NCBI GenBank assembly: GCA_012837335.1
Contig: DURM01000007.1
Location: forward strand, 31,127 to 95,126
DNA from: Bacillota bacterium
GTDB taxonomy: Bacteria > Bacillota > Limnochordia > Darwinibacteriales > DTU012
Direction: 5' to 3'
DNA: 64,000 nucleotides
In this document: one piece after another, positions 2,118 to 58,071 of the stretch
Position numbering within the stretch: the stretch's first letter is position 1
Layout of the letters: each line of letters opens with the position of its first letter
Notes under the pieces: generated by a model
Told to the model about the DNA's origin: nothing
Database searches by the model: none
The model's input: only the letters and a program-made list of their open reading frames with translations
Translations under genes and position numbers: made by a program

Positions 2118-2120
2118 GTT

Positions 2121-3134
2121 ATGGATAGACCAATTATTGCAGTCTCAACCGGCGACCCCTCAGGTATCGGGCCGGAGATTTCAATCTCGGCTCTGAAGCA
2201 TCAAGCAATCTATGGGGCCTGTCGGCCTTTTTTAATCGGAGATTTGGCAGTATTCCGCGATCTGGTGCCGGAGGAGTTGGGACTGAATCCGGTGGGACAG
2301 ATCGAGGATATGCGCTTTGAATACGGAACGATCGATCTTTTGGATCTGCAGCTGTTAGCGGAAGCTCCGCCGTTAGGCAGAGTCAACGCCGCAGCGGGCA
2401 ATGCTGCGTTTCACTATGTTAAGCGGGCGATTGAGCTGGCCCTTGCGGGAGTTGTTGATGCTACGGTGACCGGTCCCATCAACAAAGAAGCAATTAACCT
2501 TGCCGGGCACGCATTTGCCGGGCATACCGAGATTTACGCCCATTATACCAAGACCAAAGATTATGCGATGCTGTTAGCCCATGAGCATTTCCGCGTCATT
2601 CATGTTTCGACCCATGTATCGCTGCGGGAAGCCTGTGATTTAGTGACGAAGGAACGGGTGCTGAAGGTGATTAAAATTGCCGACCGCGCCTGCCGGCAGC
2701 TTGGGATTGCCGAGCCTAAAATTGCAGTCGCTGGTTTAAACCCCCATGCCGGGGAAAGCGGAATGTTCGGCCGGGAAGAAATTGAGGAAATCATCCCAGC
2801 GGTGAATGCTGCCAAGGCACTTGGACTGGATGTGGATGGACCGATTCCGCCGGATACCGTGTTTCCGAAGTTAAACGGCAAACTCTATGATATCTGTGTG
2901 TGCATGTACCATGATCAGGGCCATATTCCCACCAAACTGCTGGGCTTCACCTGGAATGAACAGGAAGGGAAATGGAATTCGGTGAGCGGCGTCAATATCA
3001 CGATGGGCCTGCCGATTATCAGGGTTTCGGTTGATCACGGCACTGCTTACGATATAGCCGGCAGGGGGATTGCATCTGAGCGATCGCTGGTAAGCGCCAT
3101 TGAATACGCAGTGCAGCTTGCCAAAAACCGCTAA
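2121..3134 (+). CDS. pdxA2: PdxA-family NAD-dependent dehydrogenase, PdxA2-like (4-phospho-D-threonate/erythronate dehydrogenase type)
   Basis: N-terminus MDRPIIAVSTGDPSGIGPEI and HVSTHVSLREA / AGLNPHAGE motifs are typical of the PdxA family. The PdxA2 assignment rests on the adjacent DUF1537 kinase. Confidence 0.7.
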   Translation: MDRPIIAVSTGDPSGIGPEISISALKHQAIYGACRPFLIGDLAVFRDLVPEELGLNPVGQIEDMRFEYGTIDLLDLQLLAEAPPLGRVNAAAGNAAFHYVKRAIELALAGVVDATVTGPINKEAINLAGHAFAGHTEIYAHYTKTKDYAMLLAHEHFRVIHVSTHVSLREACDLVTKERVLKVIKIADRACRQLGIAEPKIAVAGLNPHAGESGMFGREEIEEIIPAVNAAKALGLDVDGPIPPDTVFPKLNGKLYDICVCMYHDQGHIPTKLLGFTWNEQEGKWNSVSGVNITMGLPIIRVSVDHGTAYDIAGRGIASERSLVSAIEYAVQLAKNR

Positions 3135-3162
3135 CGAAGAAACGCAGAGAGGAGCTGATGGG

Positions 3163-4050
3163 ATGGAGTTGTGCAGAGGGATTATTCCGGCAATTTTAAC
3201 GCCTTTTACAGCCAGCGAGGACATCAATTTTCCTGAACTGCGCCGGCACGTGCGGCGAATGCTGGATGCCGGGGTGCACGGGATTTTCTGCCTGGGTACG
3301 AATGGAGAGTTCTATGCCTTAAGTGAAGAGGAAAAATATCAGGTTGTGGAAGCAGTGGTTGATGAGGTTAATGGACAGGTTCCGGTCTACGCCGGATCGG
3401 GAGAGATCGCAACTCGAACGGTTATCCGGCTCACTAAGCAGTTTCAAAAGTTGGGAGCCGATGCGGTATCGATTGTAACGCCTTATTTTATTAATCCATC
3501 TCAGCATGAGCTGTACCACCATTACCGTCGAATCGCGGAAGCAGTCGATCTCCCCATCATTCTCTACAATATTCCCATGCGGACTCATGTTAATCTAGAA
3601 CCGGAAACAGTGGCAGCTTTAGCAAGAGACTTGACCAATATTGTCGGGATTAAAGATTCCAGCGGTGACCTTCAGCTGACAAAGGCCTATATCGAGCAGT
3701 CCCCTCAAGATTTTGCTGTGATGGGCGGAAACGATGGCCTGATTCTTGATACTCTGCTGCTGGGAGGAACGGGTGCGATTGCCGCAACGGCGAATGTGAT
3801 CCCGGATATTCTCCTCAACATCTACAATGCTTACTCGGCCGGCGATCTGGAAACAGCGCGCAAGTGGCAGGAAAGGGTAGCGCCGCTGCGCCAAGATTTT
3901 AAGCTGGGAACCAGCCCAGGAGTGATCAAGGTGCAGGCCGGGCTGTGCGGTTTTGATGTTGGTCCCAGCCGTGGTCCGATTCGCTATGATGACCCGGAAG
4001 TAATTGCGAGAATCAAAGATAATATCAAGCGGAACTATAATTTGGGATAA
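3163..4050 (+). CDS. DHDPS/NAL-family class I aldolase (DapA-like; dihydrodipicolinate synthase / N-acetylneuraminate lyase family)
   Basis: ATG at 3163 lies 8 nt after GGAG; the ORF-track TTG at 3100 overlaps pdxA2. Motifs GIFCLGTNGEF, TPYF, and the Schiff-base lysine context IVGIKDSSGD are present. Confidence 0.65.
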   Translation: MELCRGIIPAILTPFTASEDINFPELRRHVRRMLDAGVHGIFCLGTNGEFYALSEEEKYQVVEAVVDEVNGQVPVYAGSGEIATRTVIRLTKQFQKLGADAVSIVTPYFINPSQHELYHHYRRIAEAVDLPIILYNIPMRTHVNLEPETVAALARDLTNIVGIKDSSGDLQLTKAYIEQSPQDFAVMGGNDGLILDTLLLGGTGAIAATANVIPDILLNIYNAYSAGDLETARKWQERVAPLRQDFKLGTSPGVIKVQAGLCGFDVGPSRGPIRYDDPEVIARIKDNIKRNYNLG

Positions 4051-4068
4051 CCTTAAAGGAGACCTGAT

Positions 4069-5376
4069 ATGGCTGTAAACCGCTTAACCATTAGTGAAAA
4101 TGGCAGGTTCTTAGCGCAGGATAATGGGCAGCCGTTTTTCTGGCTTGGTGATACCTGCTGGCTGCTGTTCAGCCGGTTGACCTTGGAGGAAGCTGAATAC
4201 TACTTAAGTGTGAGACAGCAGCAGGGTTATAATGTGATCCAGGCGTCTCTGATCCACGGTCTGCCGACACGAAACCGCTATGGGAACCGACCTTTTGTGG
4301 ATCATGACCCAGCGCAGCCGATCCTGCTGGATCATCCCGAAGGATATTGGGAGCATATCGATCGTGTACTTGCGGCAGCGGAAAAAAAGGGCCTGTACAT
4401 GGCCCTGGTACCGATGTGGGGATCGGTTGTCAGATATCAGAAAGCCACCGCAGAGCAGGCTGCGGCCTACGGCACTTGGCTTGCCCAGCGCTATCGCAGC
4501 AGACCGAATATTATCTGGCTTAACGGCGGCGACTGCCGGGGCGATGTTGGTCAAGAGATCTGGGATGCTTTAGGAGAAGCGATTAAAGCTGGCGATCCGA
4601 AGCATTTGATGACCTTTCATCCCCGGGGACGGACCCGATCCTCCATGTGGTTTCATGATCGCAGCTGGCTTGACTTTAATATGTTTCAGTCGGGACACTG
4701 CCGTTACGGCCAAGCTGGTAAGGACGGTATAACTGATCATTTTGCCCAGGACAACTGGCGGTACGTTGAGATCGACTATCAGCTGACACCGACTAAGCCA
4801 ACGATTGATGGGGAACCTTCATATGAAGCTATTCCCCACGGACTTCACGATTTTAACGAACCGCTGTGGCACGCAGCCGATGCGCGGCGATACGCGTATT
4901 GGTCAGTGTTTGCCGGTGCCTTTGGCCACACTTATGGGCACGCTTCAATCATGAAGTTGGCGTTTAAAGATTCTCCCAGCGCGAGTATGTATAAACCGTG
5001 GCAGGAAGCTGTATTTGATGAAGGCGGCACCCAAATGCAGCATTTGAAAAACTTAATTCTTGCTTATCCCTATTGGGAGCGAATCCCTGACCAAGCGGTA
5101 ATTGCAGGTGACGAGGGAGAAAAATACGAGCGTGTTGCAGTTACACGCGGTGCGGACTACTTACTTGCCTATGTTTATACCGGCAGGGAGTTTAGTCTCA
5201 GAATGGGAGTGATCAAAGGCGCCACAGTGCGGGCATTCTGGTATGACCCGCGTACGGGAGTGCGGACGCTGATTGGAGAAATGGAGAATTCCGGAGTGGT
5301 AAGTTTTAACCCTCCGGGCAAACATGAGGATGGCAATGACTGGGTGCTGATTCTCGAATCGGTATCCAGTGCTTAG
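4069..5376 (+). CDS. DUF4038 / glycoside hydrolase family 140-like protein (apiosidase family)
   Basis: FFWLGDTCWLLFSRLTLEEAEYYL, NVIQASLIH, IWLNGGD, FNMFQSGH and RRYAYWSVFAGAFGHTYGH match the DUF4038/GH140 TIM-barrel family. No signal peptide. It is a divergent paralog of 56741-58054. Confidence 0.55.
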   Translation: MAVNRLTISENGRFLAQDNGQPFFWLGDTCWLLFSRLTLEEAEYYLSVRQQQGYNVIQASLIHGLPTRNRYGNRPFVDHDPAQPILLDHPEGYWEHIDRVLAAAEKKGLYMALVPMWGSVVRYQKATAEQAAAYGTWLAQRYRSRPNIIWLNGGDCRGDVGQEIWDALGEAIKAGDPKHLMTFHPRGRTRSSMWFHDRSWLDFNMFQSGHCRYGQAGKDGITDHFAQDNWRYVEIDYQLTPTKPTIDGEPSYEAIPHGLHDFNEPLWHAADARRYAYWSVFAGAFGHTYGHASIMKLAFKDSPSASMYKPWQEAVFDEGGTQMQHLKNLILAYPYWERIPDQAVIAGDEGEKYERVAVTRGADYLLAYVYTGREFSLRMGVIKGATVRAFWYDPRTGVRTLIGEMENSGVVSFNPPGKHEDGNDWVLILESVSSA

Positions 5377-5503
5377 GGTAGCTCTTCTTGCTTAAACATT
5401 TACTTGATAATTGTTTAAATCTATTACTGGAGATAATTACAGCACAACCTGCGTGCTGGCATCCTGGGAGCTGAAATTTTGAAGCAGTAACAGCAGACTG
5501 CTT

Positions 5504-5538
5504 GGGAGAGACCCGCGGAAGGGTCTCTCTTTTTTAAA
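5504..5538 (+). terminator. Rho-independent terminator
   Basis: GAGAGACCC-gcggaa-GGGTCTCTC followed by TTTTTT. Confidence 0.7.
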
Positions 5539-5589
5539 TAATTTACTTAAAAAACATCTCATAATTTAGTTAAAGTGTTAACAATCGCA

Positions 5590-5618
5590 TTGACTCAACC
5601 AGGTTAATGTAATATAAT
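5590..5618 (+). promoter_or_regulatory. Sigma-A-type promoter (TTGACT-17 nt-TATAAT) for the Yip1/large-protein/ABC operon
   Basis: TTGACT at 5590-5595, a 17-nt spacer, TATAAT at 5613-5618, then a ~130-nt leader. Confidence 0.6.
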
Positions 5619-5753
5619 AATTACAGATGTTAAAGACGGACTAAAATATGTCGTTAAAGTGAAGATAGTGCGTAAGATGTAATGTAAACTGCAGCTGATA
5701 TTTCAGCTGAACTATCCGGGAAGGTGATTTGTGTGCGGTGCAGAGGACTGATA

Positions 5754-7895
5754 ATGGGATCATTAGTATTTTTGATACTAATGAGTTTTTATTTTCCTGC
5801 TGATGCGGCTATGTATAAAAGCTATGTCTTTGATGCATGGGGCAGGGCTGTGCCTACACCAGAACCTTATGAACCGGTTCGGATTATTTATGGCTCGGAT
5901 ATAGGCGTTGGTGAACTGATCGGTCCGGAGGATTTGTTTGTTGCTCCGGACAACACGCTGTATATAGTCGATACCCGCAACAACCGGATTGTTAGAACGA
6001 CCAGCAATTTTGAGCTGCTTGAGGTATACGCTGAGTTTGAACGGGCAGACGGCACCAAGGATCGCTTTAACAATCCGCTGGGAGTCTTTGTAACCGATGA
6101 AGGGCATATGTTTGTGGCGGATACGAACAATGGCCGCATTGTTCGCTTTGATGAAAACGGTCGCTTTATGATGACAATTGAAGCTCCGGAAAAGACTTAT
6201 CCGGAAGCATTCCCCGCGTATTTCCAGTTCCGGCCGACCAAAATTGCCATCGATCAAGTTGGCAGGCTCTATGTGACAAGCGCCGGACTGTATGAGGGTT
6301 TAATTGAGCTTGATCTCAACGGCAACTTCCGCACCTTTATGGGCGCACCCCCGGTTTACGTGGGAATCTGGGATTACTTCTGGGGCCGGATAGCCACCGA
6401 TGAGCAGCGGCAGAGACGCCAGCTCAATCTTCCAACTGAGTACAGCAGTATGGACCTGGACGCACGCGGTTTCATTTATACAACCGTATCCGGCGGTGAC
6501 ATTGATGTTACTGAGGTGGTCCGCCAGTTAAGTCCGGCGGGTAAGGATATCCTTAAGCGGGATGGTTTCTGGCCTCCCATGGGCGATATCAATGTGTTTG
6601 ACGAAATGCTTCTTTCGGAAGTGACCGGCTACTCGCTGCTGGTGGATATTATCTGTCGGGAAAACGGCATTTACAGTGTCCTGGATCAGCGGCGGGGCAG
6701 AATCTTTACCTATGATAATCATGGCAATTTGTTATATGTTTTCGGCGGTCTCGGCCAGGGTACAGGCTTGTTTGTTCGCGCGGTAGCCATTGAGCAGCTG
6801 GGCGATCAGCTGCTGGTTCTGGACAGCCGCAATAACAGCATTACTGTGTTTGAACCCACCAAATACGCTCAGCTGATTCATCAGGCGATTGATGAGTATG
6901 AGCAGGGACGCTATGAAGATTCAGCCGCTCTATGGTTTGAGGTAATGAAATATAATGCCAACTATGAGCTGGCTTATTCAGGTGTGGGAGATGCGTACCT
7001 TCGGCAGGGCGATTATGAGCAGGCCATGCTCTATTATCGTTTAGGCAACGACCGGCCTGGCTACTCGGACGCGTTTTACCGCTACCGGCGGGAATTGATG
7101 AATGAGTATTTCGGAACGTTTATGAACTGGGTGTTGGTGATCGCAGCTGTAATCTTTGCGGCTGCAAAGCGCCAGTGGATTCCCAGAGCCAAGGCAAAGT
7201 ACCGCACCAGCCAGCTGGCAGCAGCGCTGGCAAGCGAGCGGGTGCAGCAGAACCGGGTTTATGCGGCAGTAAAGGGCACCTTAAGCAAGATGCGCTATGC
7301 TCTGCATGTCATCTTCCATCCTTTTGATGGTTTCTGGGATTTGAAATACGATAACCGCGGTTCCTTTGCTGCGGCAACGGTGATTTTGCTTATGGCTGCG
7401 CTGTCCTTCGTCTTTATGCGCCAGTACACAGGATTTGTACTGAACTACAACCGTATTGAAGATCTCAATATCTTTGTCGAGGCTGTCAGCATCATTATTC
7501 CATTCTTACTCTGGTGCGTGGTTAACTGGGGTCTGACAACCCTGATGGACGGCAAGGGAAGAATGATTGATATTTATATCGCGGGAGCTTATGCGCTGAC
7601 ACCGATGGTGCTGATTTTTATCCCGGCGACTATTTTCAGCAACTACATCACTGTCGATGAAGGCACTTTTTACTATCTCCTGGTCACGATCGGTACAGTG
7701 TGGAGCTTATCCCTGCTCTTCCTTGGTGCCGGGGTGATTCATGAGTATGGTTTCGGGAAAACCATCTTTACTACAGCAGCTACGATTGTCGGTATCGGAA
7801 TTGTCCTCTTTGTGGGACTGCTGTTCTTTGACGTAATTGACCGGATGAGCTTGTTTATCCAGGATCTATATACAGAAATTGCACTGCGGTTATAA
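5754..7895 (+). CDS. Secreted NHL-repeat beta-propeller + TPR-like region + C-terminal Yip1-like multipass membrane domain protein
   Basis: ATG at 5754 lies 7 nt after AGAGGA and gives the signal-peptide-like MGSLVFLILMSFYFPADA. NHL repeats appear as YIVDTRNNRIVR, FVADTNNGRIVRFD and LLVLDSRNNSITVF. The TPR-like YEQGRYEDSAALWFEVMKYNANYELAYSGVGDAYLRQGDYEQA follows. At least five hydrophobic helices sit in the last ~250 aa (Yip1/DUF1282-like). Confidence 0.5.
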   Translation: MGSLVFLILMSFYFPADAAMYKSYVFDAWGRAVPTPEPYEPVRIIYGSDIGVGELIGPEDLFVAPDNTLYIVDTRNNRIVRTTSNFELLEVYAEFERADGTKDRFNNPLGVFVTDEGHMFVADTNNGRIVRFDENGRFMMTIEAPEKTYPEAFPAYFQFRPTKIAIDQVGRLYVTSAGLYEGLIELDLNGNFRTFMGAPPVYVGIWDYFWGRIATDEQRQRRQLNLPTEYSSMDLDARGFIYTTVSGGDIDVTEVVRQLSPAGKDILKRDGFWPPMGDINVFDEMLLSEVTGYSLLVDIICRENGIYSVLDQRRGRIFTYDNHGNLLYVFGGLGQGTGLFVRAVAIEQLGDQLLVLDSRNNSITVFEPTKYAQLIHQAIDEYEQGRYEDSAALWFEVMKYNANYELAYSGVGDAYLRQGDYEQAMLYYRLGNDRPGYSDAFYRYRRELMNEYFGTFMNWVLVIAAVIFAAAKRQWIPRAKAKYRTSQLAAALASERVQQNRVYAAVKGTLSKMRYALHVIFHPFDGFWDLKYDNRGSFAAATVILLMAALSFVFMRQYTGFVLNYNRIEDLNIFVEAVSIIIPFLLWCVVNWGLTTLMDGKGRMIDIYIAGAYALTPMVLIFIPATIFSNYITVDEGTFYYLLVTIGTVWSLSLLFLGAGVIHEYGFGKTIFTTAATIVGIGIVLFVGLLFFDVIDRMSLFIQDLYTEIALRL

Positions 7896-7918
7896 CGTTT
7901 TCAAGGGGAGAGATCAGA

Positions 7919-10753
7919 GTGAAAAAGCGGCTGGTATACCAACACATATTTGTAACCTTGATGGCATTAGGAGTGATCCTGGCGGGAACCTGCCAAGTTT
8001 TTGCCCAACTGGATAACTTTCAGCTTGCTGCCGCTAATGAATACCTCAATCTGTATATTAATCCTGAGACAGCTGAAGCCGCAGTTGAAGACCGGGCATC
8101 CGGAAAAATGTGGTTTACCAATCCTCAGGATCGGGCGGCCACCAGCCGCGGCACTGTGCTGCAGCGGTTAAGCAGCCAGTTTACCATTGTCTATCATAAT
8201 GAGAATATCATTGAAGTCGCTAAAGACAATTACCGCTACTGCATTACTTACGAGCAGTTCGAGATTACTCCCATTGAACAGGGAGTGCGGTTTGACTACA
8301 CAATCGTGGAAGAATGGAAGCCGGAGCACTATCTGCCCCAGATGATCAGCCAAGAGCGGATGGATGAGCTGATTTTAGGGAAAATTGCCAGCGCAAAAGA
8401 CCAGCAGACTGTGCTCGGTGTATACAATTTAATAATGCTGGCTCCTGTAGGTGATGGAGAGCGCTTGGCCATTAGAGGCTTAGATCAGGACAAGGTTTTC
8501 GGTGAATATGACGTTGTGGTTCTTAACCCGGATTACCTGGAGCAGCAGGAGACCCTGGCGGCTCTCCAAGCTGAACAGGCAGCCGCTGCGGATGAGGAGG
8601 AGAAAGCAAAACTCCAGTCTCAGATCGATAAACTGCAGCAGCAGATGAATAAAACTAAGGAAGATTTGACTCTGCGGCTTCTCCGCGTCATTCAGGGCAG
8701 CCGCGCTGATTTGGATAAAATTGATGACATTACTCCCGAGGATATGAGCCAGCTCGTCAATACGCCTACTTATCTGATGGCTCAGGTGCCGGCATTTCGC
8801 CTCACCGGAGTGCAGGCAGTTGTGGTCGAAACGGGCTATACCCCGATAGATGCGGGTTTAGATCATGAAATGAACAATCTTGATCCACCGCTTCCGAACC
8901 TGGAAATTTTCCAGGTACCAATTGAGTATGTTTTGGATGGGCCGAATCTGCTGGTGCGGATTCCCGCCAAGGACATTGTGTATCCGATTGATGTGGAAGA
9001 CACACTTGGTGAGAAGTATACGTTCCCGCTGCTGAGGATCAGTGTCTTAGAGTGGTTCGGAGCAGCCGGAGCTGAGCAAGATGGATACATTCTTGTCCCT
9101 GATGGCTCAGGTGCTTTAATCTACTTAAACAACGGCCGCATTAACGCTTCCGCGTTTAATGTTCCGGTTTACGGCCGCGACAATTCCCTTGATCTTCTCA
9201 AAGAAGTCCAGAATTACCCGGAGATTATTCGGCTGCCGGTCTTTGGTTTAAAGCAGGAGGATCAGGCGTTCTTTGCCATTATTGAAGAAGGAGCTCCGCT
9301 GGCAAGAATCAGAGCAGATATATCAGGACGGGCTGCCAACTACAACCAAGTTTACGCGGAATTTGTCCCCCTGCCGTCAGGTGAGATTTCGTACCGGATC
9401 GAAGATGTCAGTTCCGGGCGAATTCCAACCTACCAAGCAAGGAAATATGAAGGCGATTTTGTCATCCGCTTTGCTTTTCTGACCGGTGAAAAAGCTGATT
9501 ACGCCGGGATGGCTGAGTGCTACCGCAGTTATCTTACTGAGCGCTATGATTTTACACCGGTGGAAAGCAGACCTAGTATTCCGTTTTATCTGGAACTGAT
9601 TGGTGCCATCGATAAGCTGGAACCGGTTTTAGGTATTGCCCGGACAGTGACTCATCCCTTAACCACTTTCAGTCAGGCGCAAGAAATTGCCGCCGACCTT
9701 GGTGAGCAGGGGATAGAACAGATTCAGCTGAAGTATACCGGCTGGCTTCGGGGCGGTGTAAATCACCATTATCCTGACCAGGCTGCGGCAGAAAAGGTTT
9801 TGGGCGGAGAAGCTGATTTTCGCGATCTCATTGCTTTCATGGAAGAGCAGGGCTATGAACTCTATCCGAGCGTTGGTTTTATGCGGGTTTACCGCACCAG
9901 CTTTTTCAGCAAGTTCAGCCCGCGCAAGCACGCAGCGCGCTTTTTGGACCAGCTGCCAGCTCGCGCCCATAGGTTTTATTTGGATTCCTTTGAGCGGAAC
10001 TCATCCGCCTTTGAATATCTGTTATCCCCAGGCAGACTACCTTGGCTGGTGGACAGCTTTATGCAGGACTACCAGAAATACGGTTTGAACAGCATCTCCT
10101 TATTTGATATGGCCCGGGAAGTAAACTCAGATTTTGTCGATAAAGCCGAAGTTGTTATCGATCGGGTCCAGGCTGAACAGCTTGTTTCCGAGCAGCTGGA
10201 GAAGATTAAAGCATCCGGATCCAAGCTGATGGTCGATCGCGGCAATGCCTATGCGCTTCCCTACGCTGATGCAATTGTCAACCTGCCTACTTCCAGCAGT
10301 GGGTATAGTTTAGTAAATGCAAGCATTCCTTTTTATCAGATGGTAATCCACGGCTTAATTGATTACGCTGGAGAGCCGATCAATCTCGCTTCCAACCAGA
10401 CAAAGGCGGTGTTGAGGATGCTGGAGTCAGGAGGATATCCGTACTTTATCGGCAGTTATGCTGAGTCCTTTGAAGTCAAAAACACTGACTTTGAACATTT
10501 ATACGCTCTGCATTATCGGGATTGGCTCGATCATGCCGCTGAGGTTTATCGGGTAGCAAATGAAGTGCTCAAGGATGTGCAGGATCAGCGAATTGTGGAC
10601 CACAGGATTCTGGCGGACGGTGTCCACCAAACCACCTATGCAAACGGCAAGTCAATAATCGTTAACTACAACCGAGAAGCAGTGACTGTTGACGGCAGAT
10701 GGATTGGTGCAGAGAACTTTATTGTATTGGAGGGCGGAGTTTATGAACATTAA
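7919..10753 (+). CDS. Large secreted hypothetical protein (944 aa) with signal peptide and coiled-coil; DUF5696-like, possibly a distant glycoside hydrolase
   Basis: GTG start after AGGGGAGAG. Signal peptide MKKRLVYQHIFVTLMALGVILAGTCQVFAQ. Coiled-coil QQETLAALQAEQAAAADEEEKAKLQSQIDKLQQQMNKTKEDL. No recognisable catalytic motif. The family call is from memory of Paenibacillus-type loci. Confidence 0.35.
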   Translation: MKKRLVYQHIFVTLMALGVILAGTCQVFAQLDNFQLAAANEYLNLYINPETAEAAVEDRASGKMWFTNPQDRAATSRGTVLQRLSSQFTIVYHNENIIEVAKDNYRYCITYEQFEITPIEQGVRFDYTIVEEWKPEHYLPQMISQERMDELILGKIASAKDQQTVLGVYNLIMLAPVGDGERLAIRGLDQDKVFGEYDVVVLNPDYLEQQETLAALQAEQAAAADEEEKAKLQSQIDKLQQQMNKTKEDLTLRLLRVIQGSRADLDKIDDITPEDMSQLVNTPTYLMAQVPAFRLTGVQAVVVETGYTPIDAGLDHEMNNLDPPLPNLEIFQVPIEYVLDGPNLLVRIPAKDIVYPIDVEDTLGEKYTFPLLRISVLEWFGAAGAEQDGYILVPDGSGALIYLNNGRINASAFNVPVYGRDNSLDLLKEVQNYPEIIRLPVFGLKQEDQAFFAIIEEGAPLARIRADISGRAANYNQVYAEFVPLPSGEISYRIEDVSSGRIPTYQARKYEGDFVIRFAFLTGEKADYAGMAECYRSYLTERYDFTPVESRPSIPFYLELIGAIDKLEPVLGIARTVTHPLTTFSQAQEIAADLGEQGIEQIQLKYTGWLRGGVNHHYPDQAAAEKVLGGEADFRDLIAFMEEQGYELYPSVGFMRVYRTSFFSKFSPRKHAARFLDQLPARAHRFYLDSFERNSSAFEYLLSPGRLPWLVDSFMQDYQKYGLNSISLFDMAREVNSDFVDKAEVVIDRVQAEQLVSEQLEKIKASGSKLMVDRGNAYALPYADAIVNLPTSSSGYSLVNASIPFYQMVIHGLIDYAGEPINLASNQTKAVLRMLESGGYPYFIGSYAESFEVKNTDFEHLYALHYRDWLDHAAEVYRVANEVLKDVQDQRIVDHRILADGVHQTTYANGKSIIVNYNREAVTVDGRWIGAENFIVLEGGVYEH

Positions 10754-11648
10754 ATTGCCGCGCTTAACTCTCAGGCGCAAGCGGGCGATGTGGGGGTATG
10801 TGTTTACAGCTCCTTTTGCCATTGGTTTTGTTCTCTTTTTCCTGGCGCCGATGCTGCAGTCAATCCAATTTGCCTTTAACGAGCTGACCATGACTGCTTC
10901 AGGATTCAATCTGCACAATGTAGGCTGGGAGAATTTTCGGTATGTGCTGCAGGTCGACCCTGATTTTCTCCAGATCTTTACAGAAACCACTTTAGGAATT
11001 CTGATCGATATTCCGGCTGTAATAATCTTCAGCTTTTTTGCAGCCAGTCTCTTAAACCAAAGGTTCCGCGGCCGCACGATTGCGCGGGTGATCTTCTTTA
11101 TGCCGGTAGTGCTGACAGCCGGTGTAATCTACGAGCTGGAAGTCCAAGACATTTTCCACCACATGCGTGCTTATGTCCCGGGGCAGGATGGATTCATCTC
11201 CGGATCTCAGGCTCTGATTGGACTGATGTTTAGGCTGCAGATACCCGCGGCCTTTGTCCAGTACATCATTACGGCGGTTGGCCGCATCCCTGCAATCATT
11301 AATGCGTCAGCTATTCCGATCCTGATCTTTTTAGCAGGACTGCAGGGGATTCCTTCGTCACTGTATGAATGCGCCAAAATCGAAGGTGCTACCGGGTGGG
11401 AGAGTTTTTGGAAGATTACCTTTCCGCTGATCTCGCCCCTGTTTTTGACCAATATCGTTTATATTATTGTTGATTCGTTTACCACCCCCGCTAACCAGCT
11501 TGTTGACCACATATATAAAACGGCATGGCTGCGTAATATGTTTGGCGCGAGTGTGGCCATGACCTGGATGTACTTTGCTGCTATTGCCGTGATTATTCTG
11601 CTGGTTTTTGCAGTCTTATCAAGACGGGTTGTCTATATGGAGGAGTGA
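10743..11648 (+). CDS. Carbohydrate ABC transporter permease (MalF/UgpA-type)
   Basis: ATG at 10743 overlaps the upstream stop. Six TM helices and the EAA-like loop region (YECAKIEGATGWESFWKITFPLI) are present. Confidence 0.75.
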   Translation: MNIKLPRLTLRRKRAMWGYVFTAPFAIGFVLFFLAPMLQSIQFAFNELTMTASGFNLHNVGWENFRYVLQVDPDFLQIFTETTLGILIDIPAVIIFSFFAASLLNQRFRGRTIARVIFFMPVVLTAGVIYELEVQDIFHHMRAYVPGQDGFISGSQALIGLMFRLQIPAAFVQYIITAVGRIPAIINASAIPILIFLAGLQGIPSSLYECAKIEGATGWESFWKITFPLISPLFLTNIVYIIVDSFTTPANQLVDHIYKTAWLRNMFGASVAMTWMYFAAIAVIILLVFAVLSRRVVYMEE

Positions 11649-11652
11649 CAAA

Positions 11653-12621
11653 ATGGGTATGGAAGCTAGGATTGCTGCGAAGGATGAAATGCGCCATGTC
11701 AGCAAGTACAGCACATCAAGCTACTGGGCTGCTACCGCTTGGAGCCTGGTTAGGGCAGTCTTGATTGCGGGCATCTGCTTTATCATTGTCTACCCGGTGC
11801 TGGTCAAGTTTTCATCTTCGCTGATGACTGAAGCGGATTTGTTCGATGTCACCGTGCGCTGGGTTCCCCGCCGCTTTAACATCCGCACTGTTGTTGGTAA
11901 TTATGTAGATGTTTACCGGGAGATGGATTATCTGCGGGCGCTGTTTAACTCAACGGTATTAGCCTTAACTGTGGCTGTGCTGCAGGCGGCATCGTGTACC
12001 GTTATCGGCTACGGTTTGGCGCGGTTTGAGTTTTTCGGCAACCGCCTCATGTTCGCGATGGTTATCTTTACCCTGCTGGTGCCTCCTCAGATGGTAAACA
12101 TACCGCTGTTCTTGAATTTTCGGACCTTTGATTTATTTGGATTGTTGGAAAACCCGATCAATCTCATCGGCACATATTGGCCGTTTGTGCTCACTTCGAT
12201 AACCGGATTAGGTCTCAAAAACGGACTTTTTATCTACATTATGCGGCAGTTTTTTAAAGGCATGCCGAAGAGCTTGGAAGAAGCAGCCCTGGTGGATGGA
12301 GCGGGACAGCTGCGCACGTTCTTTAGAATTATGCTGCCGGGTGCCAAGGTTTCTCTGATTATTGTCTTCTTATTCTCGTTTGTCTGGCAGTACAATGATT
12401 TGTTCTTAACGTCCATGTATATGCGGCAGACTCAGACGCTGCTGCCGTTTAAACTGAGAAACCTGACTTTGATTTTTGACAACCTGGATTACTCGGATGA
12501 GTATATTTCGGTGATTATCAACACAGGAATGATTATGTTCATTACGCCGGTACTACTGCTGTACGCTTTCCTGCAGAGATACTTTATTGAAAGTATTGAG
12601 CGGACTGGAATTGTGGGTTAG
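11653..12621 (+). CDS. Carbohydrate ABC transporter permease (MalG/UgpE-type)
   Basis: ATG at 11653 after GGAGTGA. EAA motif EEAALVDGAGQLRTFFRIMLP is present. Confidence 0.75.
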   Translation: MGMEARIAAKDEMRHVSKYSTSSYWAATAWSLVRAVLIAGICFIIVYPVLVKFSSSLMTEADLFDVTVRWVPRRFNIRTVVGNYVDVYREMDYLRALFNSTVLALTVAVLQAASCTVIGYGLARFEFFGNRLMFAMVIFTLLVPPQMVNIPLFLNFRTFDLFGLLENPINLIGTYWPFVLTSITGLGLKNGLFIYIMRQFFKGMPKSLEEAALVDGAGQLRTFFRIMLPGAKVSLIIVFLFSFVWQYNDLFLTSMYMRQTQTLLPFKLRNLTLIFDNLDYSDEYISVIINTGMIMFITPVLLLYAFLQRYFIESIERTGIVG

Positions 12622-12632
12622 GGGCTGATTTT

Positions 12633-14909
12633 GTGAAACAAAGCAATAATTTTATCGGAGATATGCTCGACTTTGATTTGCCGGAGGCAGCTGATGATGT
12701 TTTCTGGCTTGGCGGGAGACCGACGGCGGTTCGGGCAGAAAATGGCGCTGCAGTGATTACAATACCCTTTCAAGCCCAGACCAGGCCGAAATTAAATCCT
12801 GATCCTTCGCAAGCGCCGAAATCCTATGATCTGATTGTCCGAGCTTACGGAGAGAAGATCGTCCGCTGTTCCATTTCTTTTGGCAGTGACTTTCCGGAAG
12901 ATGACACCAATGTGATGATGGAATGGGATCCGGCTCTTAAGCAGGAGCCATTAGAAGTTAGACCAGCTGCAGCAGGCTGGGATATAGTTGACAGCAGCGG
13001 AAATGTGCGGATGACCATCACGACCGCAGAGCAACCCATTAAAAAGTGGAGCTCGCTGCTGCCGCCGCCGCAGGATATCTTTGCTGCTGCCGTCTACCCC
13101 GATGGTAAAACCGCTGTGCCCTTTATGGCTTATGATACTTTTTCACCGGGGCACATCGATTCCGCCAGCTTGGGCTATGTAGAGCGTGATTCTAAACCAA
13201 ACCGCTCTGTGTTTTCGCTGTACGCAGGACCGGATGAAAAGTTTGCCGGAACCGGCGAGCGGTTTTTGGGCATGAACCTTTCCGGACAAACCATTATTTT
13301 AGAAAATGAGGATGCGGCCGGTGCTAACAGCCGCAGGGCTTATAAAAACATTCCGTTTTACCTTTCCAGCCGCGGTTATGGACTCTTAATTATGACTTCC
13401 TACCATGTGCGGCTTTCTCTGGCCGATATCTCAACCAGAGCGGCTCAAGGGCTGGTTGAATCAGATCTTCTGGATCTGTTTTTTATCGGAGGCGAGACTC
13501 CGGCTGAGATTATTCGCGGTTACTGGCAGATAACCGGATATCCCCGGAATGTGCCGCTATGGTCATATGGTGTATGGATGAGCCGCATGACCTACTTTTC
13601 AGCCGAAGAAACGCTGGATATCGCCCGTAAGCTGAGGGAAGGCGGATATCCCTGCGATGTAATTCACCTTGATACCGGATGGTTCCGGAAAGATTGGCAG
13701 TGCGAGTGGGAGTTTAACGAAAGAACCTTCCCCGATCCCAAGGGCTACATGGGTCAGATGCGGGACATGGGGATCAGAATCTCGCTGTGGCAGACTCCAA
13801 ATGTTGCGAAGAAAACGAAGCATTACCAGACGGCCATCGAAAATGGCTATCTGCCCCGGAAGCGGGCTGCTTCAGGGGATGCTTCCAACTTCGGCGCGGT
13901 AGAATACGGCGGCCGGATTGATTTTACCAATCCGGAAGCGGTTAAGTGGTACCAGGGGCTTTTGAAAAATCTTTTTGATTTGGGTGCTGAAGTAATCAAA
14001 ACTGACTTTGGTGAGATGATTGATTCCAACGCTGAGTTTTTTAACGGCATGAGCGGTGAGGAACTCCACAATCTCTACGCTCTTTTGTACCAGAAAGCAG
14101 CTTTCGATATTACAGAAAAGACTAAAGGCCGGGATCAGGCCATAATTTGGGCGCGGGCCGGTTGGACAGGATGCCAGCGGTATCCAGTGCACTGGAACGG
14201 GGACTGCGCCAGCACTTGGGATGGTCTGGCGGGAACAATTCGGTCGGGACTGCACATCGGTGTTTCCGGATTTGCCTTTTGGAGCCATGATGTGGGAGGG
14301 TTTCATGGACTTCCGGATTTTATGAACAGCTGGCCCGATGAAAAATTGTATCTGCGCTGGACTCAAGTAGGCGTTTTTACCAGCCACATGCGCTATCACG
14401 GCACTAATCCCCGGGAACCTTATCTCTATCCGGAAGTAAGCGATTTGGTGAGGGAGTGGCTGAAACTCCGCTATGCTCTGATTCCGTATCTGGATGAGCA
14501 GGGCAAAAAGGCGGTCAGCAGCGGTTATCCTGTCCTGCGGGCTTTGATTTTCCATCATTATGATGATCCATTCTGCTGGTATATCGATGATCAGTTCTAC
14601 TGTGGTGATCAGCTCTTAATTGCGCCGATCCTGAATCCGGAAGGAATCAGAAATGTTTATCTGCCGGCAGGTCAGTGGACCGATTTTTGGACCGGTGAAG
14701 TGATTGTAGGACCGGTGATGTTAAAGGATGTCAAAGCGGAGCTGTCCCGGATTCCAGTTTACTGCGCAACCGGATCGAAGATTTCGGTTTATCCAGAGGT
14801 GGTGCAGCATACTGGTGAAATGGATTTGAATAAAACTGTCCACCTAAATTTTGACCAAACATATCGGGGCTTTGACCAGTCTATTTTAGGTAAAATCATT
14901 AAAATTTAG
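12633..14909 (+). CDS. Glycoside hydrolase family 31 (alpha-xylosidase/alpha-glucosidase-like)
   Basis: GTG start. GH31 catalytic region DVIHLDTGWF and KTDFGE (as in YicI), plus WNGDCASTWDGL. No signal peptide. Confidence 0.75.
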   Translation: MKQSNNFIGDMLDFDLPEAADDVFWLGGRPTAVRAENGAAVITIPFQAQTRPKLNPDPSQAPKSYDLIVRAYGEKIVRCSISFGSDFPEDDTNVMMEWDPALKQEPLEVRPAAAGWDIVDSSGNVRMTITTAEQPIKKWSSLLPPPQDIFAAAVYPDGKTAVPFMAYDTFSPGHIDSASLGYVERDSKPNRSVFSLYAGPDEKFAGTGERFLGMNLSGQTIILENEDAAGANSRRAYKNIPFYLSSRGYGLLIMTSYHVRLSLADISTRAAQGLVESDLLDLFFIGGETPAEIIRGYWQITGYPRNVPLWSYGVWMSRMTYFSAEETLDIARKLREGGYPCDVIHLDTGWFRKDWQCEWEFNERTFPDPKGYMGQMRDMGIRISLWQTPNVAKKTKHYQTAIENGYLPRKRAASGDASNFGAVEYGGRIDFTNPEAVKWYQGLLKNLFDLGAEVIKTDFGEMIDSNAEFFNGMSGEELHNLYALLYQKAAFDITEKTKGRDQAIIWARAGWTGCQRYPVHWNGDCASTWDGLAGTIRSGLHIGVSGFAFWSHDVGGFHGLPDFMNSWPDEKLYLRWTQVGVFTSHMRYHGTNPREPYLYPEVSDLVREWLKLRYALIPYLDEQGKKAVSSGYPVLRALIFHHYDDPFCWYIDDQFYCGDQLLIAPILNPEGIRNVYLPAGQWTDFWTGEVIVGPVMLKDVKAELSRIPVYCATGSKISVYPEVVQHTGEMDLNKTVHLNFDQTYRGFDQSILGKIIKI

Positions 14910-14956
14910 AGGTTAAGAAACGGTGTTATATATTAAGTAATTGGGAAAGATGCTCT

Positions 14957-14985
14957 TGATTTTTTAGCTGGAGACGCATATAATT
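14957..14985 (+). promoter_or_regulatory. Sigma-A-type promoter (TTGATT-17 nt-TATAAT) upstream of the solute-binding protein gene
   Basis: TTGATT at 14957-14962, TATAAT at 14980-14985, then a ~180-nt leader. Confidence 0.55.
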
Positions 14986-15167: not shown

Positions 15168-16532
15168 ATGTTTACAAAGGGAAAAATGCTGGTTCCTAGT
15201 TTGATCCTGGTGATCGCGCTAGTTATGGCCAGCGGATTCGCAGCAGCCAATCAGGAGTTTGATTTCAATGGCGAAACATTGAAATTCCAAACTCGCTGGT
15301 GGGGTGTAACTCCACTTGGACCGAGAAACGAGTTTGACTGGTACGGTCCAGATTCACTGCTTCAAGCGCACATTGAAGAAATTGAGGAAATGTTTAACTG
15401 CAAGATCGAATGGGTTGAGCCCGGCGAGTGGTTTGGTGACCAATCATTCCTGGTAACCCACATGATGGCGGGAGATCTGCCGTTCCACTTCACTCACTTA
15501 GAAGAAGAAAGAATGGCGATTCAAGCTTCCCTGGGAACTCTCGCTCCTTTAGAAGATGTACTGGAAGACGACTTCTATGAAGGCTATCCAGATCTGTTCA
15601 AATCCGACGTTCGCAATCCCGGCTATACTTTCGGCAACCATGTCTACGGTTTTGAAGCGCTGAACTTCCAGCGGGAAGTTGTTGGTATTATTTGGAACAT
15701 TGATTTATTCGAGCGGGAAGGCCTGCCTAACCTCTATGAGCTGTACGAGAATGGCGAGTGGACCTATGAAGTAATGGCTGACATTGCCCGCAAAGCAACC
15801 AAGGATACAGACGGCGACGGCGTTATCGACCAAATGGGATTATATGTGGATCCCCAGAGATTCTATACTCACGCAGTCTATTCATTCGGCGGCTCCTTTG
15901 AAAGAAACGCCAACGGCAAGATCGAGTTTGCCCTTAACGATCCAAAATCACTGCAGGGTCTCGAGTTCGCAGTTGGATTGTTCAGAGAAGGCGTAGCTAA
16001 CGCTGACTATTGGGGCAAGCGTCGGGATGGTAACTTTGCAATGGGTTACTACTACGTCCATGACCTGCCGAACGTTGGTCAAAACTCCACCGATCGCTTC
16101 GGTATTGTTCCGCCGCCAAAAGGACCGGGCAGCGATGAGCACCTGGTCGACATCTGGAGTCAGTGGATGGGTGTTATTCCCCTTGGCGTTGAGAATCCAA
16201 GAGGCGTAATCGAAGTTGCTAAAGCGCTCTTCGGTTTAAGTGAACCTTACATCGCAGATATGAGCGCGTGGGAAGACAATTGGTGGTACGTATCACCGGG
16301 TCACGGCAACTACATCCAGGATATGGAAACATTTGAAAACTGGCAGTGGATGCTCGGTAACGCTAGAGGCCTGCTGGCACCGTACCTGAAGATGGCGATC
16401 AAGATGGCTGACTGGGATTGGTGGACTAAGTTCCATAACGCAGTTGTTACTGACGGCCAAAGTATCTCGGCTTACATTGATCAGTGGACACCAGTAATTC
16501 AAGCAGAATTGGATTCAGTACTAGGCCAATAA
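15168..16532 (+). CDS. Extracellular solute-binding protein (SBP family 1) of the sugar ABC transporter
   Basis: Strong RBS AAGGAGGAGG 7 nt upstream. N-terminal signal/anchor MLVPSLILVIALVMASGFAAANQ with no lipobox Cys. SBP_bac_1 hallmark YEVMADIARKATKDTDGDGVIDQMG. Confidence 0.6.
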   Translation: MFTKGKMLVPSLILVIALVMASGFAAANQEFDFNGETLKFQTRWWGVTPLGPRNEFDWYGPDSLLQAHIEEIEEMFNCKIEWVEPGEWFGDQSFLVTHMMAGDLPFHFTHLEEERMAIQASLGTLAPLEDVLEDDFYEGYPDLFKSDVRNPGYTFGNHVYGFEALNFQREVVGIIWNIDLFEREGLPNLYELYENGEWTYEVMADIARKATKDTDGDGVIDQMGLYVDPQRFYTHAVYSFGGSFERNANGKIEFALNDPKSLQGLEFAVGLFREGVANADYWGKRRDGNFAMGYYYVHDLPNVGQNSTDRFGIVPPPKGPGSDEHLVDIWSQWMGVIPLGVENPRGVIEVAKALFGLSEPYIADMSAWEDNWWYVSPGHGNYIQDMETFENWQWMLGNARGLLAPYLKMAIKMADWDWWTKFHNAVVTDGQSISAYIDQWTPVIQAELDSVLGQ

Positions 16533-20018: not shown

Positions 20019-20044
20019 TTCGGTCAGCAAAGGGGGAGAGGGGA

Positions 20045-51700: not shown

Positions 51701-51721
51701 GTGAACCTATTAGGCTAAATC

Positions 51722-51758
51722 AGCACATGCTCCAGTTGCTGCTGGGGCATGTGCTTTT
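51722..51758 (+). terminator. Intra-operon hairpin/attenuator between SBP and permease genes
   Basis: AGCACATGC-tccagttgctgctgg-GGCATGTGCT followed by TTTT. Confidence 0.45.
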
Positions 51759-51774
51759 CAGGAGGTGGGTCTAG

Positions 51775-53589: not shown

Positions 53590-53599
53590 AATTATTAAT

Positions 53600-53628
53600 T
53601 TGTAAAATATCTTTGTAAAAAGTATAAT
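53600..53628 (+). promoter_or_regulatory. Sigma-A-type promoter (TTGTAA-17 nt-TATAAT) for sensor kinase/response regulator genes
   Basis: TTGTAA at 53600-53605 and TATAAT at 53623-53628. TTTGTAAAA is a direct repeat. Confidence 0.5.
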
Positions 53629-53660
53629 GAAAGTGTAAAAAACAAAACAGGTGCTGAGCT

Positions 53661-58054: not shown

Positions 58055-58071
58055 GGTGGAGGCGATGGGGT

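Follow-up and report, generated by a model that had tools for sequence, protein, structure and literature searches.

The fusion gene described here, which joins an exported NHL propeller and TPR repeats to a Yip1 membrane domain, lies in a stretch of 64,000 nucleotides (the window) and, on balance, probably encodes a conserved accessory membrane subunit of a specialized CUT1-type ABC importer for complex-glycan fragments. We arrived at this assignment by comparing sequences, gene neighborhoods, and predicted structures. The preliminary description of the gene proposed a binding module anchored at the cell surface, possibly organizing the 944-aa product of the next gene or a glycan. As two ABC importer permeases are among the invariable partners of the gene, its context is that of a transporter and not just that of a surface scaffold, and the consistent synteny of the unit with DUF5696 and the permeases in hundreds of Bacillota genomes points to an unstudied kind of glycan-uptake machine.

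The gene is a single uninterrupted open reading frame on the forward strand (5724..7895), as had been claimed. Its start had been placed at ATG 5754. We found that GTG 5733 is the most likely start, because homologue N termini of the form MRxR.. align there and the spacing from the Shine-Dalgarno sequence favors it; ATG 5754 and GTG 5724 were dropped on the same grounds. Translation from GTG 5733 would give the signal peptide its positively charged n-region (MRCRGLIMGSLVFLILMSFYFPADA|A). Upstream, a terminator-like hairpin ends a GH140 gene and appears to mark the point after which a new transcription unit begins, and the promoter candidate that follows, identified by consensus match only, was the top-scoring site in the 11-kb region scanned. 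The features of the gene and its neighbors are collected in Table 1.

Table 1. Positions in the window of the fusion gene, its upstream signals, the domains of its product, and the partner genes
Feature	Position	Strand	Basis or remarks
Intrinsic-terminator-like hairpin and T-run	5504..5531	+	11-bp stem, 6 GC pairs, then TTTTAAATAA
Sigma-70-like promoter candidate, TTGACT-17-TATAAT	5590..5618	+	11/12 consensus positions
Shine-Dalgarno sequence, GGAAGGTGA	5719..5727	+	Direct sequence reading; 5 nt 5' of GTG 5733
Fusion CDS, 720 aa	5733..7895 (stop codon included)	+	Homologue N termini align at start
Signal peptide, residues 1-26	5733..5810	+	Predicted cleavage after A-D-A
Six-bladed NHL beta-propeller, residues 27-375	5811..6857	+	Pfam, profile search, AlphaFold2 model
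Two TPR repeats (four helices), residues 376-440	6858..7052	+	Profile and AlphaFold2 helices 377-437
TM1, residues ~460-478	7110..7166	+	Hydropathy 2.06; AlphaFold2 helix 441-480
Basic cytoplasmic linker, residues ~479-524	7167..7304	+	20% pairwise identity; net charge +6.7
Yip1 domain, residues 525-720	7305..7892	+	PF04893, 56.2 bits; hydropathy; AlphaFold2
DUF5696 protein, 944 aa	7919..10753	+	PF18952, 673 bits; N-terminal signal peptide or anchor
ABC permease 1, 301 aa, MalF/UgpA-like	10743..11648	+	Pfam, NCBIfam
ABC permease 2, 322 aa, MalG/UgpE-like	11653..12621	+	Pfam, NCBIfam
GH31 alpha-xylosidase-like enzyme	12633..14909	+	Pfam, NCBIfam
Divergent CUT1-type solute-binding protein, 454 aa, signal peptide	15168..16532	+	Positional homologue, weak PDB match

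The 720-aa product consists, in order, of a signal peptide, an NHL propeller, TPR repeats, a first transmembrane (TM) helix, a cytoplasmic linker, and a Yip1 domain. Pfam, profile searches, and an AlphaFold2 model (pLDDT 86.4, pTM 0.75) agreed with the order of signal peptide, NHL, TPR-like, and Yip1 parts that had been claimed; in the model, a six-bladed propeller is followed by four TPR helices, a long helix leading into TM1, and five more TM helices. The propeller was recognized as the six-bladed NHL-repeat type by both HMM match and fold: Pfam detected NHL repeats (E 1.4e-13) and the DUF5128 six-bladed propeller, and a profile of 33 homologues matched the six-bladed Pizza designs and the NHL propeller of PknD (E 1e-49 to 3e-26), with up to six stretches matched in Pizza7H. 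Within the propeller there is a helical insert that is conserved (~212-229), and a loop at 288-294 has low confidence. At least three NHL repeats had been counted initially; the NHL propeller stands, and its extent is corrected to six blades. When the single sequence was searched, TPR_16 and TPR_11 fell below their Pfam cut-offs (TPR_16, 23.5 < 32.7); residues 388-438 of the family profile aligned with consensus TPR proteins (whole-chain E as low as 1e-25), and profile and model together gave two repeats of the 34-residue TPR type, each with a pair of antiparallel helices, which are predicted to sit directly above the membrane.

Six TM helices follow the signal peptide, so the label "5-TM" in the preliminary description fits the Yip1 bundle but not the total. 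TM1 is an extra helix, through which the chain is predicted to pass from outside to inside. A basic loop of ~65 aa (net +6.7 over 33 sequences) separates the ectodomain and TM1 from the Yip1 bundle, which matched PF04893 well above its cut-off of 28.6 bits and over profile positions 2-172 of 173. Hydropathy placed five TM helices in this domain (~544-562, 579-597, 612-634, 651-669, and 684-702), coinciding with AlphaFold2 helices at 545-564, 580-604, 611-636, 644-670, and 674-719, and the N terminus of the domain is predicted to be cytoplasmic. The domain also has a juxtamembrane motif (HVIFHPFDGFWDLK) and a predicted external C-terminal helix. For the propeller and TPR repeats, a location external to the cytoplasmic membrane is predicted, in agreement with the original proposal: a signal peptide is present, the homologues have small residues at −3/−1 (position −1 is Ala in 22/33 and A, S, G, or T in 29/33), the ectodomain is acidic (net −13), and the loop after TM1 is strongly basic. 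The host is probably a diderm (Limnochordia-like), and "cell surface" would in that case mean the periplasm.

As the protein is laid out like a receptor, with an ectodomain, a TM helix, and a cytoplasmic segment, we considered whether it is an extracytoplasmic sensor, in which a PknD-like propeller detects a ligand and signals across the membrane, for example to control transporter gating or expression. Pfam and NCBIfam scans of the fusion protein revealed no kinase or other cytoplasmic output domain, and the sensor role was rejected as very improbable. The cytoplasmic parts of the protein amount to the poorly conserved linker and short loops, the linker can be split between two genes without loss, and regulators in the loci are encoded apart from it, as LacI, AraC, or GntR genes and as two-component systems.

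Relatives of the fusion protein formed 899 protein clusters at E <= 1e-3 and were encoded in 559 stretches of species-representative genomes. The preliminary description called the fusion unusual, but among the 150 best representatives of clusters at 50% identity, 103 are fusions of full length. In this large family the fused form predominates and is no rare architecture, and the protein already carries the NCBI name "YIP1 family protein." A split form, with an NHL-TPR-TM gene overlapped by a Yip1 gene, occurs in Paenibacillus, Lederbergia, and Lachnospiraceae and in roughly half of the metagenomic loci that we examined. In P. polysaccharolyticus, Lederbergia, and a Lachnospiraceae MAG, it occupies the same position in the locus, and its genes encode 490-500 aa and 206-211 aa, respectively. 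The split point is the cytoplasmic linker, the least conserved segment (20% pairwise identity, compared with 48-53% for the folded propeller, TPR, and Yip1 parts). Together, the NHL-TPR-TM half and the Yip1 half appear to be one two-protein unit, either fused or translationally coupled.

The existence of separate genes in some lineages could suggest that the fusion is an artefact, a frameshifted or misassembled junction of two neighboring genes. This reading is effectively refuted: the frame in the window has no interruption, an independent Logan assembly gives an identical 713-aa product, the fused form occurs not only in the 103 cluster representatives but also in 80/80 genome loci, and it contains a linker of ~50 aa that the split form does not have.

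We analyzed synteny in both directions. The 80 loci taken from species-representative genomes, starting from the fusion gene and all fused, span Limnochordia, Halanaerobiales, Clostridia, Oscillospiraceae, Paenibacillus, Bacillus, and Mahella. The gene directly after the fusion is DUF5696 in 72/72 of the genome loci, and in 51/51 it is succeeded by a specific pair of ABC permeases; this order persists down to 33% identity. Starting reciprocally from DUF5696 in metagenome contigs, we found NHL and Yip1 sequences directly upstream in 60 of 61 loci (29 fused and 31 split) and the permeases downstream in all 63 of 63; in the sole exception (L126), an internal deletion joins the propeller to DUF5696 at approximately residue 153. 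With 72/72 and 60/61 loci in agreement, synteny gives very strong backing to the suggested link with the 944-aa neighbor. By this comparison, the NHL/Yip1, DUF5696, and permease genes are evolutionarily inseparable; on such grounds, synteny and fusion prove a functional link, not a complex.

The fusion gene is co-oriented and tightly packed with DUF5696 (exported and GH129-like) and the two permease genes, and the binding protein is encoded nearby. A structure model of DUF5696 (pLDDT 89.8) has a GH129/GH101-like fold, and Foldseek matched it to ZgGH129 (a 3,6-anhydro-D-galactosidase), NagBb, and EngBF (E 2e-28, 4e-27, and 1e-16, respectively). The proteins share three domains (an N-terminal beta-sandwich, a TIM barrel, and a C-terminal beta-sandwich), but sequence identity is only ~10-17%, and DUF5696 has an extra helical insert at ~204-320. 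The profile similarity between DUF5696 and GH129 is weak but significant (E 4e-9), with an alignment that ends before the catalytic strands, and a catalytic role for the near-invariant D738 is a positional guess from alignment offsets. DUF5696 is a probable new GH129-like glycosidase family. As the HMM alignment stops short of the catalytic strands, it could instead be a non-catalytic binding protein. A short form of DUF5696 occurs among the metagenomic loci. Our literature search on DUF5696 and PF18952 returned no papers, and a search combining Yip1 or NHL with ABC transporter, glycan, or Paenibacillus topics returned nothing relevant.

The start of permease 1 overlaps the stop of DUF5696 by 11 nt. 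The two permeases are of the BPD_transp_1 type found in CUT1 systems: they matched PF00528 with 27.0 bits (just over the cut-off of 26.4) and 48.9 bits, and NCBIfam classed them as UgpA/MalF-like and UgpE/MalG-like. The GH31 gene, in whose product no signal peptide was seen, is missing at that position in most related loci and is therefore locus-specific cargo outside the conserved core. The 454-aa protein, whose gene has its own promoter-like site (14956-14984), had no Pfam or NCBIfam match even at E = 10; it matched the SBP_bac_1 gene located after permease 2 of locus L084 (BLASTP 2e-24) as well as AbnE (6rjy; E 1.7e-6), which identifies it as the cognate extracytoplasmic solute-binding protein. 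Relatives of it are encoded within 8 kb downstream in 16/80 loci and within 7 kb upstream in 13/80. Neither the 64-kb window nor seven related contexts yielded an ABC ATPase gene, and transport activity is accordingly an assumption. Firmicute CUT1 systems commonly share an MsmX/MsmK-type ATPase encoded elsewhere, and the ATPase of the cassette is presumed to be shared and encoded elsewhere too. A second, ordinary CUT1 system is present in the window at 50426-53589.

Some genomes contain several paralogous cassettes, with at least five in MAG AS02xzSISU_7 and three each in AS21ysBPME_219 and AS08sgBPME_46. The permeases of the cassettes are 35-76% identical to those of the window, whereas a conventional pair next door is 22-34% identical. 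These observations suggest that the fusion protein belongs to a component-specific set rather than being a shared helper. Median identity to the window was 45% for permease 2, 43% for permease 1, 41% for the fusion protein, 35% for DUF5696, and 28% for the binding protein. Divergence of the fusion protein tracked that of the permeases (Spearman 0.81-0.86) and of DUF5696 (0.70) but not significantly that of the binding protein (0.29); all of these correlations rest on one reference sequence, and phylogeny confounds them.

An alternative is that the fusion protein is a biogenesis factor (a holdase or assembly chaperone), which would transiently help the export, folding, or insertion of the large DUF5696 protein or the unusual permeases without belonging to the finished machine. 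TPR modules are typical of chaperones and adaptors, and strict synteny fits a dedicated assembly factor equally. The Yip1-family protein YknW is described as modulating the assembly of its transporter (PMC4887032). However, each paralogous cassette keeps its own copy of the fusion gene, and the close tracking of permease divergence suggests a stoichiometric, co-adapted partner. We consider a purely transient role improbable.

The CAZymes that flank the cassettes differ from locus to locus (GH43 with arabinose catabolism; GH38 and GH85; GH28; PL1 with GH31, GH29, and GH42), and across these loci the propeller, TPR, and Yip1 domains are about equally conserved (48-53%). The role of the propeller-Yip1 protein would thus be generic across substrates. 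A different expectation follows if the propeller is itself active on the incoming oligosaccharide, as a glycan-binding lectin or a lactonase/lyase/esterase-type enzyme, and Yip1 is a mere anchor. Models for such an enzyme exist in the SMP-30/gluconolactonase, Vgb lyase, and PAL propellers, the Pfam SGL propeller scored above its cut-off (31.8 versus 26.3 bits), and NHL propellers encoded in Bacteroides PULs have been described as auxiliary nutrient-binding proteins (3tc9). However, the invariant residues of the propeller belong to the repeated structural NHL motif D-x-x-N-x-R-I/V of blades 1, 2, 5, and 6, and a metal or catalytic constellation was not seen. Conservation on a par with Yip1 in loci for different glycans would be unexpected for a substrate-specific site, and a plain anchor needs neither a conserved 5-TM Yip1 bundle nor a separate Yip1 gene. 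An active propeller is therefore an unlikely explanation.

For the importer subunit that we favor, the following sequence of events can be proposed. Sec export and signal-peptide cleavage would place the TPR-capped six-bladed propeller on the outer face of the cytoplasmic membrane, where TM1 and the loose basic linker would tether it to the 5-TM Yip1 bundle. By the precedent of YknW, the bundle may dock sideways on the permease heterodimer, and the propeller and TPR repeats may hold the DUF5696 enzyme, an oligosaccharide or binding protein, or both over the transporter. Trimming of the glycan could thereby be coupled to its uptake. Substrate specificity would reside mainly in the binding protein and DUF5696, with the propeller-Yip1 protein as a generic core part. 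We suggest more tentatively that the NHL-TPR-Yip1 protein (or split pair), DUF5696, the permease pair, and the nearby binding protein might make up one physical machine.

The usual picture of how Gram-positive and diderm Bacillota take up glycans combines secreted enzymes with ordinary three-part ABC importers. The five-component cassette is invariant across Paenibacillus, gut Oscillospiraceae and Lachnospiraceae, and digester Limnochordia, and its invariance, frequent presence in multiple copies, and location beside varied CAZymes imply a recurrent, unrecognized coupling of trimming and transport. If these products do form one machine, a widespread ABC importer of Bacillota would have its own glycan-processing head outside the cytoplasm and, although located at the cytoplasmic membrane, would correspond in function to the Bacteroidota SusCD "utilisome"; bacterial Yip1 domains would be general lateral docking modules for ABC transporters. 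The proposal gives testable functions to two families of "unknown" function, the bacterial Yip1 proteins and DUF5696, and the cassette can serve as a marker for finding and annotating glycan-utilization loci in Bacillota.

Among the closest known systems is the Bacillus subtilis YknWXYZ transporter, in which YknW, also a bacterial polytopic Yip1 protein, shares its operon with membrane components of the ABC transporter; it is reported to interface with YknX and YknYZ and to modulate how the YknXYZ ABC exporter assembles (PMC4887032, citing Yamada et al. 2012, J Bacteriol 194:4386). The cassette is a second, independent association of Yip1 with an ABC transporter: co-encoding of the YknW type was seen in 51/51 and 63/63 loci, far more strictly than is usual, with an importer as the partner. 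YknW is small and stand-alone and has no ectodomain, whereas the fusion protein has a propeller/TPR ectodomain. The partner of YknW is a MacB-type exporter with a membrane-fusion protein that functions in toxin resistance; those of the fusion protein are BPD_transp_1 type I importer permeases, a solute-binding protein, and a GH-like protein in glycan-utilization loci. As the ABC fold of the YknW partner differs from that of type I importers, the docking analogy is loose. In Mycobacterium tuberculosis PknD, one TM helix joins the extracellular NHL sensor to a Ser/Thr kinase in the cytoplasm; in comparison, the fusion protein has an additional TPR module and Yip1 bundle and has no kinase or other output domain. 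The NHL lipoproteins linked to SusC/SusD in Bacteroides (BT_3476, PDB 3tc9) belong to another phylum, are lipid-anchored in the outer membrane, have no Yip1 or TPR domain, and are partnered with a TonB-dependent transporter, not an ABC importer; the established likeness is that of the propeller fold. With conventional CUT1 (MalFGK2-type) importers, the cassette shares two BPD_transp_1 permeases, an SBP_bac_1-like binding protein, a setting among glycoside hydrolases, and, presumably, an ATPase encoded elsewhere. Ordinary CUT1 systems have no Yip1, NHL, or DUF5696 genes, however, and the cassette permeases form a co-evolving subgroup of their own, with 35-76% mutual identity and 22-34% identity to the conventional permeases encoded beside them.

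The fusion, which combines a signal peptide, an NHL propeller, TPR helices, a first transmembrane segment (TM1), and a Yip1 domain, is encoded by one open reading frame on the + strand (5724..7895) with three possible in-frame start codons. Judged from the sequence, the best of these is GTG 5733, which begins 5 nt beyond a strong Shine-Dalgarno sequence (GGAAGGTGA, 5719-5727) and yields a 720-aa product. The resulting N-terminus, MRCRGL..., aligns with those of the closest homologues (MRYRSP, MRCRCL, and MRHKCL) and supplies the basic n-region that is missing if translation starts at ATG 5754, as the preliminary description had assumed.

Pfam matches in the fusion were NHL, SGL, DUF5128 (a six-bladed propeller), and Yip1 (56 bits against a cut-off of 28.6), with TPR below threshold. 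A profile built from 33 homologues matched the PknD NHL propeller as well as six-bladed Pizza designs (E 1e-49 to 3e-26). In Pizza7H as many as six stretches were matched, and residues 388-438 matched consensus TPR proteins. An AlphaFold2 model was confident (pLDDT 86.4, pTM 0.75); in it, TM1 is followed by short cytoplasmic helices and then by five further TM helices. That the propeller is itself catalytic or a lectin seems to us rather unlikely.

Hydropathy indicated a signal peptide and six TM segments. In the 33 homologues, an acidic ectodomain (net -13) is followed, after TM1, by a strongly basic 65-residue loop (net +6.7), and position -1 of the signal peptide is Ala in 22 and small in 29. 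These features lead to the prediction that the propeller and TPR are extracytoplasmic, in agreement with the preliminary description and not with a cytoplasmic propeller. TM1 would carry the chain inward, and the Yip1 bundle is predicted to end outside after starting in the cytoplasm, the side expected for Yip1. A role as a sensor of external signals is highly improbable, because an output domain is absent.

The architecture had been called unusual, a claim that did not survive database searches: the full-length protein has 899 relatives at E <= 1e-3, and the best 120 of these nearly all span 690-760 aa and share the Pfam pair. The fusion itself is no novelty, as NCBI already lists the family under generic names ("YIP1 family protein" or "DUF1282 family protein"). 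When the Yip1 domain alone was used to query 1.84 billion cluster representatives, 1709 matched at E <= 1e-3 and 320 at E <= 1e-30; the best 150 matches comprised 103 full-length fusions, 18 stand-alone proteins (195-235 aa), and fragments. In Paenibacillus polysaccharolyticus, Lederbergia galactosidilyticus, and one Lachnospiraceae MAG, two genes occupy the same position, one encoding NHL, TPR, and TM1 (490-500 aa) and the other Yip1 (206-211 aa). They overlap by 17-22 nt, with an internal ribosome-binding site within the upstream gene, and align with residues 3-468 and 517-719 of the window protein. The split lies within the cytoplasmic linker, where conservation of the fused protein is lowest (pairwise identity 20%, as against 48-53% in the propeller, in TPR, and in Yip1). 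On these alignments, the window gene is a fusion of two genes kept separate elsewhere, and we give next to no weight to its being an artefact.

The main finding is the invariance of the neighbouring genes. A scan from the fusion, with one genome per species, found 559 stretches encoding a relative, from which we kept 80 loci in Limnochordia, Halanaerobiales, Clostridia, Oscillospiraceae, Paenibacillus, Bacillus, and Mahella. A homologue of the DUF5696 protein is the next gene in 72/72 loci with at least 1.5 kb downstream, and same-strand homologues of the two window permeases follow in all 51 with at least 6.5 kb; this synteny persists down to 33% identity. In the reciprocal direction, from DUF5696 in metagenome contigs, NHL and Yip1 lie directly upstream in 60/61 loci (29 fused, 31 split), and the permease pair lies downstream in 63/63. 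The sole exception to reciprocal synteny is a metagenomic locus (L126, 4935-8535) in which a deletion of the TPR, TM1, the Yip1 domain, and the DUF5696 N-terminus joins the propeller (query residues 11-380) to DUF5696, which is present from about residue 153 onward; the locus has either decayed or been mis-assembled. In several genomes the cassette occurs three to five times or more.

A relative of the window's 454-aa binding protein was found within 8 kb downstream in 16/80 loci and within 7 kb upstream in 13/80. A second, conventional permease pair lies directly upstream in 20/64 genome loci, preceded in 5/7 gene-called contexts by a giant SBP_bac_1 binding protein (~960-1000 aa); neither was present upstream of the NHL/Yip1 gene in the window. 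Many related loci have this longer arrangement of eight genes.

Features of the window, the fusion model, and related loci
Feature	Position	Detail
Terminator hairpin	5504-5531	clean; upstream of fusion gene
Promoter-like site	5590-5618	near-consensus TTGACT-17-TATAAT; upstream of fusion gene
Signal helix	residues 4-19	AlphaFold2 model
Six-bladed propeller	residues 27-375	AlphaFold2 model
Conserved helical insert in propeller	residues 212-229	AlphaFold2 model
Single floppy propeller loop	residues 288-294	AlphaFold2 model
Four TPR helices	residues 377-437	AlphaFold2 model
Long helix continuing as TM1	residues 441-480	AlphaFold2 model
DUF5696 protein	7919-10753	944 aa; N-terminal signal peptide or anchor
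Permease 1	10743-11648	MalF/UgpA-like, BPD_transp_1
Permease 2	11653-12621	MalG/UgpE-like, BPD_transp_1
Binding protein	15168-16532	454 aa; signal peptide; own promoter-like site
Glycan-degradation genes	4069-5376, 12633-14909, 16646-40673, 47526-49559, 56741-59361	+ strand
Second, ordinary CUT1 system	50426-56610	SBP and two permeases; adjoins histidine kinase and AraC-type response regulator
Eight-gene extended form	~1100-5900 or 5100-9980 (locus coordinates)	giant SBP_bac_1, second permease pair, and cassette; L081, L082, L084, L087, L088

The DUF5696 model was also confident (pLDDT 89.8) and consists of a beta-sandwich, a TIM barrel, and a second beta-sandwich, with an extra helical insert (~204-320) that is absent from the ~850-aa Paenibacillus forms. 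Its best Foldseek matches were GH129 (ZgGH129, E 2e-28; NagBb, E 4e-27), then GH101, GH36, and GH31. Profile searches also detected remote homology to GH129/GH101 (E 4e-9), families with similar catalytic domains (PMC8106489); the profile alignment to GH129 ends before the catalytic strands. DUF5696 is likely to be an undescribed, putative glycoside-hydrolase family. The 454-aa protein has no Pfam match, but is homologous to the SBP_bac_1 gene product after permease 2 in one extended locus (L084, 2e-24) and to AbnE, which binds arabino-oligosaccharides. The window itself encodes no ABC ATPase.

The window is, nearly throughout, one long + strand glycan-degradation island, encoding two GH140 apiosidase-like proteins, GH31, GH29, GH42, GH2, GH95, GH115, two GH63-like proteins, a BT_1020-like propeller with a sialidase-like CBM, a fucose isomerase-like protein, an FGGY sugar kinase, and LacI. 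Together these genes are reminiscent of a degradome for rhamnogalacturonan-II or a fucosylated pectic glycan; set beside the Bacteroides RG-II degradome, they suggest an apiose- and fucose-containing pectic glycan as the target. A 914-aa ORF (20015-22759) has no Pfam match; at a related locus (L089), a ~904-aa unannotated gene also follows GH42. ORFs 118-801 and 49576-50295 have no family match. Between two glycan-utilisation blocks lies an 832-aa GAF-PAS-GGDEF-HD(HD_5) protein (43803-46301), likely involved in c-di-GMP turnover or signalling.

A Logan metagenome contig matches the window, and the genomes closest to it are "Bacillota" MAGs from digesters. Among the relatives with names are Limnochordia and Halanaerobiales, both of them diderm lineages (PMC11456536), and so the ectodomain may face the periplasm in this host; the family occurs equally in monoderms, Paenibacillus among them. 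A 389-aa ORF on the - strand (59439-60608) matches the outer-membrane protein Wzi below threshold, with 24.1 bits where the cut-off is 30.1, which faintly hints at an outer membrane and fits a Limnochordia-like diderm.

The enzymes encoded beside related cassettes differ considerably from locus to locus (GH43 with arabinose catabolism; GH38 with GH85; GH28; pectate lyase with GH31/GH29/GH42), which makes the cassette look generic. Compared with the window, median identity is 45% for permease 2, 43% for permease 1, 41% for the fusion, 35% for DUF5696, and 28% for the binding protein. Divergence of the fusion tracks that of the permeases (Spearman 0.81-0.86) and DUF5696 (0.70), and its correlation with the binding protein is not significant (0.29), all of these figures being confounded by phylogeny. 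Within that limit, the ranks and correlations fit a conserved core of permeases and propeller-Yip1 with variable specificity parts.

What the sequences show or predict is the architecture and its topology, co-encoding that is obligate in both directions, a unit that is fused in some loci and split in others, and a partner with a GH129-like fold. We favour, with some reserve, the fusion as an accessory subunit of a specialised importer. The stronger claim, that a single physical machine is built from all of the parts, we advance only tentatively. The Yip1 bundle would dock on the permease heterodimer, and the propeller/TPR would hold in place the DUF5696 protein, the binding protein, or the substrate, thereby coupling the trimming of glycans to their import; two precedents make this proposal reasonable. 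That the protein is a dedicated assembly factor seems to us distinctly unlikely.

In the literature searched we found no account of an ABC importer that combines a Yip1/NHL-TPR component with a DUF5696 protein of GH129-like fold. Far from being an isolated curiosity, the cassette is widespread and strictly conserved, and it lends itself to experiment. The window's ordinary CUT1 system, which has neither Yip1 nor DUF5696, provides an internal contrast to it, and the cassette is related to known CUT1 glycan importers and to Yip1 accessory subunits of ABC transporters.
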